From assembly GCF_045037415.1 (NCBI RefSeq), contig NZ_CP173438.1: a stretch of DNA of 64,000 nucleotides; one strand, 5' to 3'. Below, piece after piece: positions 33,652 to 33,892 of this stretch; positions within the stretch are counted from its first letter, which is position 1; every line of letters starts with the position of its first letter. Made by a program: the position numbers and the translations under genes. The notes beneath the pieces were generated by a model that saw only the letters and a program-made list of their open reading frames with translations, was not told the DNA's origin and ran no database searches. Source of the stretch: Escherichia coli. Its GTDB lineage: Bacteria > Pseudomonadota > Gammaproteobacteria > Enterobacterales > Enterobacteriaceae.

Positions 33652-33843
33652 GACAGAATGTAAGAACGTAAATTTATTCCGAGCCGCTACGGAAGATGAA
33701 AAACGCAAGGTTGTTGAAAGCGTTGTGTTTTTTTATGGTAGTGCCGTCAGCAGGAATGTTGTCCAGGGCGAAAAGCTTCTTCCTCGTTTCGCCCTGCCTT
33801 TCTTAATATTTCCCGTGAAGACTTTGCCCTCTGAATAACACCC

Positions 33844-33872
33844 ATAAAAAAACCCGCCGAAGCGGGTTTTTA
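33844..33872 (-). terminator. Rho-independent terminator of the rpoBC operon
   Basis: Minus-strand RNA forms AAAAACCCGCTTCGGCGGGTTTTTTT, 20 nt after the rpoC stop. Confidence 0.75.
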
Positions 33873-33892
33873 CGTTATTTGCGGATTAACGA

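Follow-up and report, generated by a model that had tools for sequence, protein, structure and literature searches.

A candidate small RNA gene behind thiH in a yjaZ- and sroH-free form of the Escherichia coli thiH-rpoC spacer

The thiH and rpoC genes of Escherichia coli are transcribed towards each other, and in a 64,000-nucleotide stretch of contig NZ_CP173438.1 (assembly GCF_045037415.1; hereafter the window) the spacer between them, which in K-12 holds the gene yjaZ and the small RNA gene sroH, measures exactly 241 bp (33652-33892). This raises the question of what so short a spacer contains, and whether the absence of the K-12 genes or the sequence that is present is its more informative property. 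On one side it is bounded by thiH, the last gene of thiCEFSGH (32518-33651, + strand), a 377-aa open reading frame (ORF) with Pfam Radical_SAM and BATS domains that is annotated as thiH in an identical genome, and on the other by rpoC (33893-38116, - strand), a 1407-aa ORF annotated as rpoC in identical genomes; in these genomes nothing is annotated between the two. A preliminary description of the locus, made from the sequence alone, had reported a 241-bp spacer with the rpoC terminator and without an ORF on either strand. The ORF ends agree with this length, no ORF on either strand exceeds 37 aa, and the terminator was found at 33848-33871. We show here that the short spacer is a common allele, and we argue that it probably carries a small RNA (sRNA) gene built from two conserved hairpins.

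The candidate sRNA of about 57 nt occupies 33746-33802 on the + strand (K-12 equivalent 4190640 to 4190584, minus strand) and consists of two adjacent hairpins followed by a CCUUUC tail. Hairpin 1 (HP1; 33746-33763, + strand) pairs GUCAGC with GUUGUC around a loop that contains GGA (AGGAAU), and it is present in every true homologue. Hairpin 2 (HP2; 33764-33796, + strand) is the feature that the preliminary description had singled out as a second strong hairpin with a 12-nt loop at about 33747-33774; the hairpin is real, but it lies some 20 nt away from that position and its loop has 13 nt. The HP2 core (GGGCGAAA/TTTCGCCC; 33766-33773 / 33787-33794) extends to a 10-bp stem (CAGGGCGAAA/UUUCGCCCUG; 33764-33773 / 33787-33796), which closes the CU-rich loop AGCUUCUUCCUCG and folds with -15.0 kcal/mol (z = -3.6 against shuffles).

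Across 5426 complete E. coli genomes, the collection used for all counts in this species, the two-hairpin unit is found in 5420, is at least 99% identical in 4524, and is single-copy, with a median of one place per genome. It is unannotated, and no Rfam family matched it at E values up to 1. Beyond E. coli, Trabulsiella has an HP2 whose loop is unchanged and in which two pairs differ in a compensatory way, and K. michiganensis and Pseudocitrobacter also carry HP2. A scan of metagenome contigs with a pattern that fixed only the lower HP2 stem and CTTCCTC, so that HP1 lay outside the pattern, returned 69 loci. The full element is present at 48 of these, all of which carry HP1 (GUCAGC-loop-GYUGWC, with GGA in the loop), and ThiH is encoded immediately upstream at 47; for the 48th, the contig is too short on the upstream side for this to be judged. 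In all 47 the element stands 104-106 nt after the last aligned ThiH codon. By ThiH similarity the contigs are assigned to Klebsiella, Pseudocitrobacter and a Scandinavium-like group, and in these groups, as in Escherichia and Trabulsiella, the unit stands at a constant distance of about 104 nt behind ThiH.

The substitutions among these homologues fit a folded RNA. In an alignment of 21 distinct sequences, 94% of the cells were paired, compared with 21-47% when the pairing partners were slid. HP2 pair 33-54 occurs as AU in 13 sequences, GC in seven and GU in one, pair 35-52 as AU, CG, UA or GU, and HP1 pair 11-21 as GC in 11 and GU in 10; the G.U pairs form only on the thiH-sense strand. The HP2 loop core, CUUCCUC, is invariant across the alignment. 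A covariance model gave the window copy a score of 65.7 bits, its sole match in the window. As a whole, the unit displays a conserved, non-coding secondary structure with covariation, the lower HP2 stem being fixed by the search pattern. Klebsiella-type loci (L024 1466-1500) have a further option: with the 5' flank GCCCUGG, HP1 can lengthen into a perfect helix of 12 bp (GCCCUGGUCAGC/GCUGACCAGGGC) that takes up the 5' arm of HP2, so that only one of the two folds can form at a time. E. coli and T. guamensis are unable to form this helix.

An RNA end maps to the foot of HP2. The K-12 Term-seq study of Adams et al. (2021, eLife; PMC7815308) lists in its Supplementary file 1 a curated dominant 'orphan' 3' end at MG1655 4190584 (-), and the reported flank (...CGCCCUGCCUUUC) places this end 6 nt after the HP2 stem, equivalent to window 33802; the end comes from K-12 and not from the window's own strain. 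The average reads given there are 130816 in LB at an optical density (OD) of 0.4, 527736 in LB at OD 2.0 and 74886 in M63 glucose (PMC7815308). In LB, the 3' end gains about fourfold between OD 0.4 and OD 2.0, where it reaches a count like that of SroH, and its lowest count is in thiamine-free M63. A thiamine pyrophosphate (TPP) riboswitch precedes thiC (28106-28206, + strand; above the Rfam gathering score), and the Term-seq pattern is the opposite of what should be expected of a thi operon mRNA under its control.

Between the thiH stop codon and HP1 lies another hairpin with a run of seven U, T1 (33698-33735, + strand; -14.6 kcal/mol, z = -4.8, then UUUUUUU). A homologous hairpin with a U-run stands at the same place in Salmonella and Klebsiella, and T1 is probably the intrinsic terminator of the thi operon. 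HP2 itself had been proposed as either a thiH-side terminator or a small structured RNA; the Term-seq end and the covariation across genera support this proposal as a whole. The thiH terminator proper is more likely T1. Judged as an intrinsic terminator, HP2 has a fitting stem (10 bp, 6 of them G-C) and, in K-12, an RNA 3' end a few nucleotides after that stem, but its 13-nt loop compares with the usual 3-8 nt and a terminator scan made no call on it. The tract that follows HP2 is CCUUUCUU in E. coli, with 5 U in 8 nt, CCUCUCCG in Klebsiella, and CCCUCGAU or CCCUCAAC in Trabulsiella; its U-richness does not appear to be conserved.

Nested in T1 is a promoter-like motif, TTGTTG-17 bp-TATGGT (-35 at 33711-33716, -10 at 33734-33739, + strand), which ends 6 nt before HP1 and whose -35-like box lies in the T1 loop. 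The general form, TTGnnn-17-TAnnnT, recurs 6-7 nt before GUCAGC in 16 of 16 lineage representatives, with a mean score of 6.8 of 12 versus 1.6 in shuffles, and the sequence around it cannot otherwise be aligned between genera. The -10 element of Klebsiella and the Scandinavium-like contigs is CTATTCT or CTACGCT, which we take to resemble stationary-phase promoters.

Taken together, we assign a probability of roughly 0.6 to the reading that the two-hairpin unit is an independently transcribed, unannotated sRNA of about 57 nt. Such an sRNA would have its own transcription, driven by the promoter-like motif within T1; HP2 and the short CCUUUC tail would define where it ends, and its exposed CUUCCUC loop would pair with purine-rich, Shine-Dalgarno-like sites in other RNAs. 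The CUUCCUC core resembles an anti-Shine-Dalgarno sequence, complementary to GAGGAAG-type sites. The 5' end, the promoter, the independence from thiH transcription and the regulatory function are what we infer from these features. Complements of the loop found elsewhere in the window are purine-rich codons and are uninformative as to targets. Read in the thiH direction, the spacer consists of T1 with its nested promoter-like motif, the two-hairpin unit, 27 allele-specific bp and the rpoC terminator.

Several observations weigh against a separate sRNA. A promoter scan of 33400-34100 at default stringency called none, and the promoter-like motif, from which we infer the 5' end and promoter, scores only 6-8 of 12. 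The candidate has no Hfq-type U tail, and its GGA loop looks like a CsrA site, but the available part of the published supplementary text contains no Hfq-CLASH signal and no CsrA CLIP peak at these coordinates. The covariance model found no match in the Salmonella, Kluyvera, Enterobacter and Buttiauxella loci, and the covariation comes from two pairs and from related sequences. Since the lower seven HP2 pairs and CUUCCUC were fixed by the search pattern, they are invariant by construction among the metagenome sequences, which make up most of the alignment; independent support for the lower stem and loop core comes only from the four genera found by synteny. Finally, the Term-seq curation merged peaks within 100 bp, and a 3' end at T1 could therefore be hidden, in which case the RNA ending at HP2 could be read-through of the thi operon or a stable decay fragment. 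The supplements of Kim 2012 and of the Cappable-seq study contain no entry at the coordinates of the unit, and a search of the literature for an sRNA next to thiH returned nothing relevant.

The main alternative, which we consider less likely, is that the hairpins are the structured 3' end of the thiCEFSGH mRNA, reached by read-through of a weak T1, with HP2 serving as the actual terminator or as an exonuclease barrier after Rho-dependent termination, and that there is no separate sRNA gene. The constant distance of the unit from the thiH stop in all genera is what such a 3' end would show, as are the U-containing CCUUUCUU tract and the RNA end 6 nt past the stem; the region is rich in C and poor in G, as Rho loading sites are, and the promoter-like motif is weak and was not called by the standard scan. 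However, reads that rise fourfold between OD 0.4 and OD 2.0 and are lowest in M63, where the thi operon should peak, do not follow the expected behavior of this mRNA, and SroH-level reads in LB at OD 2.0 would be unusual for a repressed biosynthetic transcript. A plain barrier hairpin, moreover, needs neither an invariant loop nor a second hairpin with a conserved GGA loop, and the -35/-10-like motif keeps its register while its surroundings have diverged beyond alignment. That the inverted repeat acts as DNA, either as an operator for a dimeric protein or as a REP-like element, is very improbable: it is indeed near-perfect and intergenic, but REP/BIME elements need many copies and the unit is single-copy in every genome, its arms change in a compensatory way where an operator would keep its sequence, the G.U pairs fit one strand only, and an RNA 3' end maps at its foot.

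More specific identities for the unit were tried and rejected. At E values up to 1 it matched neither SroH nor another Rfam family, and the only sub-threshold matches (rsmX, Trp leader and others) all fall on the rpoC terminator. A leader for the phosphotransferase system (PTS) genes that follow was also rejected: Enterobacter and Trabulsiella have in common a separate region, with a CRP-like site, that precedes the IIB gene and lies 3' of HP2, and in Enterobacter this region occurs without HP1 or HP2. For a BglG-type RAT antiterminator, resemblance to GGAUUGUU is limited to a few variants. A CsrA sponge of the CsrB/CsrC type is disfavored by the single conserved GGA loop, that of HP1, and by the lack of a CLIP peak in the portion of the supplement that was available. 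Kissing between the HP1 and HP2 loops would have only 3 conserved base pairs. The only three ORFs of the spacer encode 36 aa (33696-33806, + strand), 37 aa from a GTG start (33725-33838, + strand) and 32 aa (33747-33845, - strand), and their frames are not kept in other genera; the first shares only its initial three residues (MKN) with a Klebsiella ORF that begins at the same conserved ATG, after which indels shift the frame.

In its design the candidate sRNA recalls several known RNAs. Type I 3'-end sRNAs of enterobacteria, such as DapZ and MicL, are transcribed from a promoter of their own that lies within or immediately behind the upstream gene; they end at the same terminator as the mRNA, and their U tail is bound by Hfq. 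The candidate is likewise a short transcript on the strand of the upstream gene, with a hairpin end downstream of it and a promoter-like motif overlapping the 3' region of that gene; unlike DapZ and MicL, it lies after the terminator-like T1 of the mRNA and ends in CCUUUC without a U run, and the available part of the published supplements shows no Hfq signal for it. In Staphylococcus aureus, C/U-rich loops of RsaE, RNAIII and the anti-Shine-Dalgarno motif of the icaR 3' untranslated region (UTR) pair with Shine-Dalgarno regions. The invariant pyrimidine loop CUUCCUC, held on a stable stem and complementary to GAGGAAG-type ribosome-binding sites, is comparable, but these RNAs come from another phylum and have no sequence relationship to the candidate, and the resemblance is one of design only. 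The rrn dual-terminator sRNAs rrA, rrB and rrF (PMC8144298) are likewise short operon-end RNAs that are flanked by a first terminator and a second hairpin; the candidate differs from them in its proposed separate promoter and in that the CLIP data, as far as the supplement was available, contain no CsrA peak for it.

The remainder of the spacer raises the question of why it is so short. The preliminary description had placed a gene of about 180 codons, named yjaZ/htrC, between rpoC and thiH in K-12, and had noted its absence here. The annotation of K-12 (MG1655) bears this out: its rpoC-thiH interval is 1161 bp long and contains yjaZ (b3989; 540 bp, 179 codons, on the strand of rpoC), together with sroH (b4691; an sRNA gene of 161 nt on the strand of thiH), whose absence had been overlooked. 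The function once assigned to yjaZ under the name 'htrC' has been retracted. K-12 YjaZ gave no tblastn match in the entire 64-kb window (best E 0.28), and sroH (Rfam RF00372; gathering score 80 bits) had no match in the window and none at E values up to 1 within 33000-34500, while in the K-12 interval, used as a control, it scores 201 bits. The absence of yjaZ does mark the genome as different from K-12, as had been proposed from it and the absence of arpA; HP2, being identical in K-12, does not.

The two forms have sharp boundaries. In a BLAST alignment, identity to K-12 is 100% from within rpoC up to 6 nt beyond the rpoC terminator, and 97% identity resumes 162 nt downstream of the thiH stop and continues into thiH. 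Between these points, 947 bp in K-12 (L001 327-1273) stand against 27 bp in the window (33814-33840, allele-specific and without strand); the K-12 segment has a GC content of 41.5% and the window 52.5%. The 27-bp filler is not significantly similar to the K-12 segment at either of its ends; the rpoC-side end of the segment in strain E69, a divergent Escherichia lineage, resembles it weakly (25 of 1000 shuffles). By the junction, a stretch of 8-9 nt (GACTTTGC) or 9-10 nt (AGACTTTGC; window 33820-33829 versus K-12 L001 1253-1262) appears inverted between the alleles, which may reflect a small inversion or chance. On the far side of the filler lies the rpoC intrinsic terminator (33848-33871, - strand), a symmetric element of A-run, stem and T-run whose site is 100% identical to K-12. 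It folds with about -16 kcal/mol on either strand and is the single terminator-like site that a consensus scan of the spacer returned, called on the + (thiH-sense) strand; it could also stop thiH-sense read-through. The thiH DNA is only 95.4% identical to that of O157:H7 (L019 467-1600), while the adjacent rpoC 3' end reaches 99.5%, and the thi side of the junction appears to be an unusually divergent haplotype.

Comparison across E. coli genomes reveals the short spacer to be a common allele that is already tabulated. The short form aligns end to end, at 96.8-100% identity, in 1634 of the 5426 complete genomes (30%), and 3741 carry the K-12 segment. Over 441 bp the region is 100% identical to many O25b:H4-type genomes. 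Nissle 1917 has an identity of 99.1%, and an alignment of four short-form genomes gives one common junction, including the 27-bp segment. Among plasmid-labelled records of the collection, the yjaZ-sroH segment occurs at five places and the short-form spacer at two. Skippington and Ragan (2012; PMC3318445) listed sroH as lost in groups B2 and D and a few other strains, and the window presents the same locus in the same state, with nothing different in kind. The window thus represents the yjaZ/sroH-free allele of the rpoC-thiH spacer, a common old haplotype of the O25b:H4 type, and the other allele, with the 947-bp low-GC yjaZ-sroH module, is that of K-12 and most A/B1/E-type genomes. The absence of yjaZ is in itself of little weight, being frequent and already tabulated, and yjaZ has no established function. 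To the published polymorphism our comparison adds the exact breakpoints (947 versus 27 bp), the pairing of yjaZ with sroH on plasmids, and the content of the site in other genera.

The yjaZ and sroH genes behave as one mobile module, since a homologue of sroH follows plasmid-borne yjaZ in the same layout. YjaZ homologues (Pfam PF27200) are patchily distributed, in Raoultella plasmids, Pantoea, Salmonella, Aeromonas and even cyanobacteria. The closest ones outside E. coli (78% and 70% identity) come from CP099330.1, an E. fergusonii record of 88 kb that is apparently a plasmid, and from a 90-kb contig; HigB/HigA-like toxin-antitoxin and umuDC-like genes neighbor both copies, and directly after each comes a homologue of sroH (Rfam 144 and 102 bits) in the same convergent arrangement. 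The pair spans L020 3001-3693 and L022 3001-3732 in these plasmid-type contigs and L001 487-1188 in K-12. On its other side the plasmid-type contigs share a conserved four-gene block. In O157:H7 the yjaZ homologue is annotated in a shorter form (444 bp, 'protein HtrC'; L019 2035-2478), and the K-12 segment aligns there in two pieces with 93% coverage, which suggests decay of yjaZ in that lineage. A published CsrA CLIP-seq supplement lists peak_411 in the yjaZ 5' UTR (K-12 4189685-4189833, outside the window), and on this account yjaZ may be under CsrA control in K-12.

Other genera carry different cargo between thiH and rpoC, and the gap is a hot spot for variable genes in the Enterobacteriaceae (L005, L007-L014). 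In Klebsiella, Kluyvera and Pseudocitrobacter it contains a GGDEF gene (dCache-GGDEF) with orphan PTS IIB/IIA genes, in Enterobacter and Trabulsiella PTS IIB/IIA alone, in Salmonella (L009/L010 7135-9478) an sseK1 islet with an SseK/NleB-family effector gene, and in a close relative (L008) a cold-shock gene with IIB/IIA. None of these has yjaZ at this site.

The short form could be an original empty site or the product of a deletion, and our data contain arguments for both. We regard it as about an even prospect that E. coli ancestrally had the empty site, as in the short form, and that the module was inserted from a plasmid-like source into the ancestor of the yjaZ-bearing lineages, replacing about 27 bp. 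The module is low in GC, paired on plasmids and absent from this site in the other genera compared; nothing in the long form corresponds to the 27 bp of the short form, which a replacing insertion would explain and a simple deletion would not. Short-form genomes differ from one another by up to 3.2%, which implies that this form is old, and B2, D, F and G are early branches of rooted E. coli trees. Against this stands strain E69, whose rpoC 3' part is 97.4% identical to that of the window (O157, 99.5%; Salmonella, 92.9%) and which has the long form at the same junctions; the published analysis also inferred loss rather than gain (PMC3318445). The converse, which we rate as slightly less likely, is that Escherichia ancestrally had the long form and that B2/D-type lineages lost yjaZ-sroH by a secondary deletion. 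The long form of E69, with its identical junctions and a segment 92% identical to that of K-12 overall (98.8% in sroH), and the published inference (PMC3318445) both favor it. So does an imperfect 14-nt direct repeat at the ends of the long form (GAATATTTAAGGAA at L001 354; GAATTTTTAAGAAA at L001 1275). The short form has one copy, and the distance to the edge of the terminator is 30 nt in either form. However, the 27-30 nt by the rpoC terminator are unrelated between the forms (about 40-50% identity, not significant), which disfavors recombination between the repeats, since these terminator-adjacent nucleotides would then have been kept; and a repeat of 12 matches in 14 in AT-rich DNA could be due to chance. 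We note that the contig scan with the last 21 nt of rpoC returned only five loci and missed E. albertii and E. fergusonii.

Outside the spacer, the window contains two complete rRNA operons (11247-16264 and 51424-56532, - strand), with a match to the StyR-44 family in the spacer before each 23S gene, and tRNA genes at 14565-14637, 47519-47957 and 54731-54922. Further Rfam matches above the gathering score are a cobalamin riboswitch (59614-59803, - strand), a P26-family match upstream of rpoB (42475-42536, - strand) and the REP-derived naRNA4 (5893-5964, - strand).

The pairing of yjaZ with sroH in about 70% of E. coli chromosomes and on plasmids suggests that SroH, an RNA of unknown function, may work with or on yjaZ, and this provides a testable lead. 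The two-hairpin unit behind thiH, if confirmed as an sRNA gene, would add a gene to the best-annotated bacterial genome and explain an 'orphan' Term-seq peak; the candidate is conserved and abundant, and is shared by K-12, clinical lineages such as ST131, and Klebsiella. In its broadest form our proposal is a tentative one: at least five genera of the Enterobacteriaceae may possess an unannotated sRNA gene of about 57 nt, possibly with a stationary-phase promoter, whose product could reach SroH-level abundance in stationary phase and, through its CUUCCUC and GGA loops, might regulate translation or titrate an RNA-binding protein.

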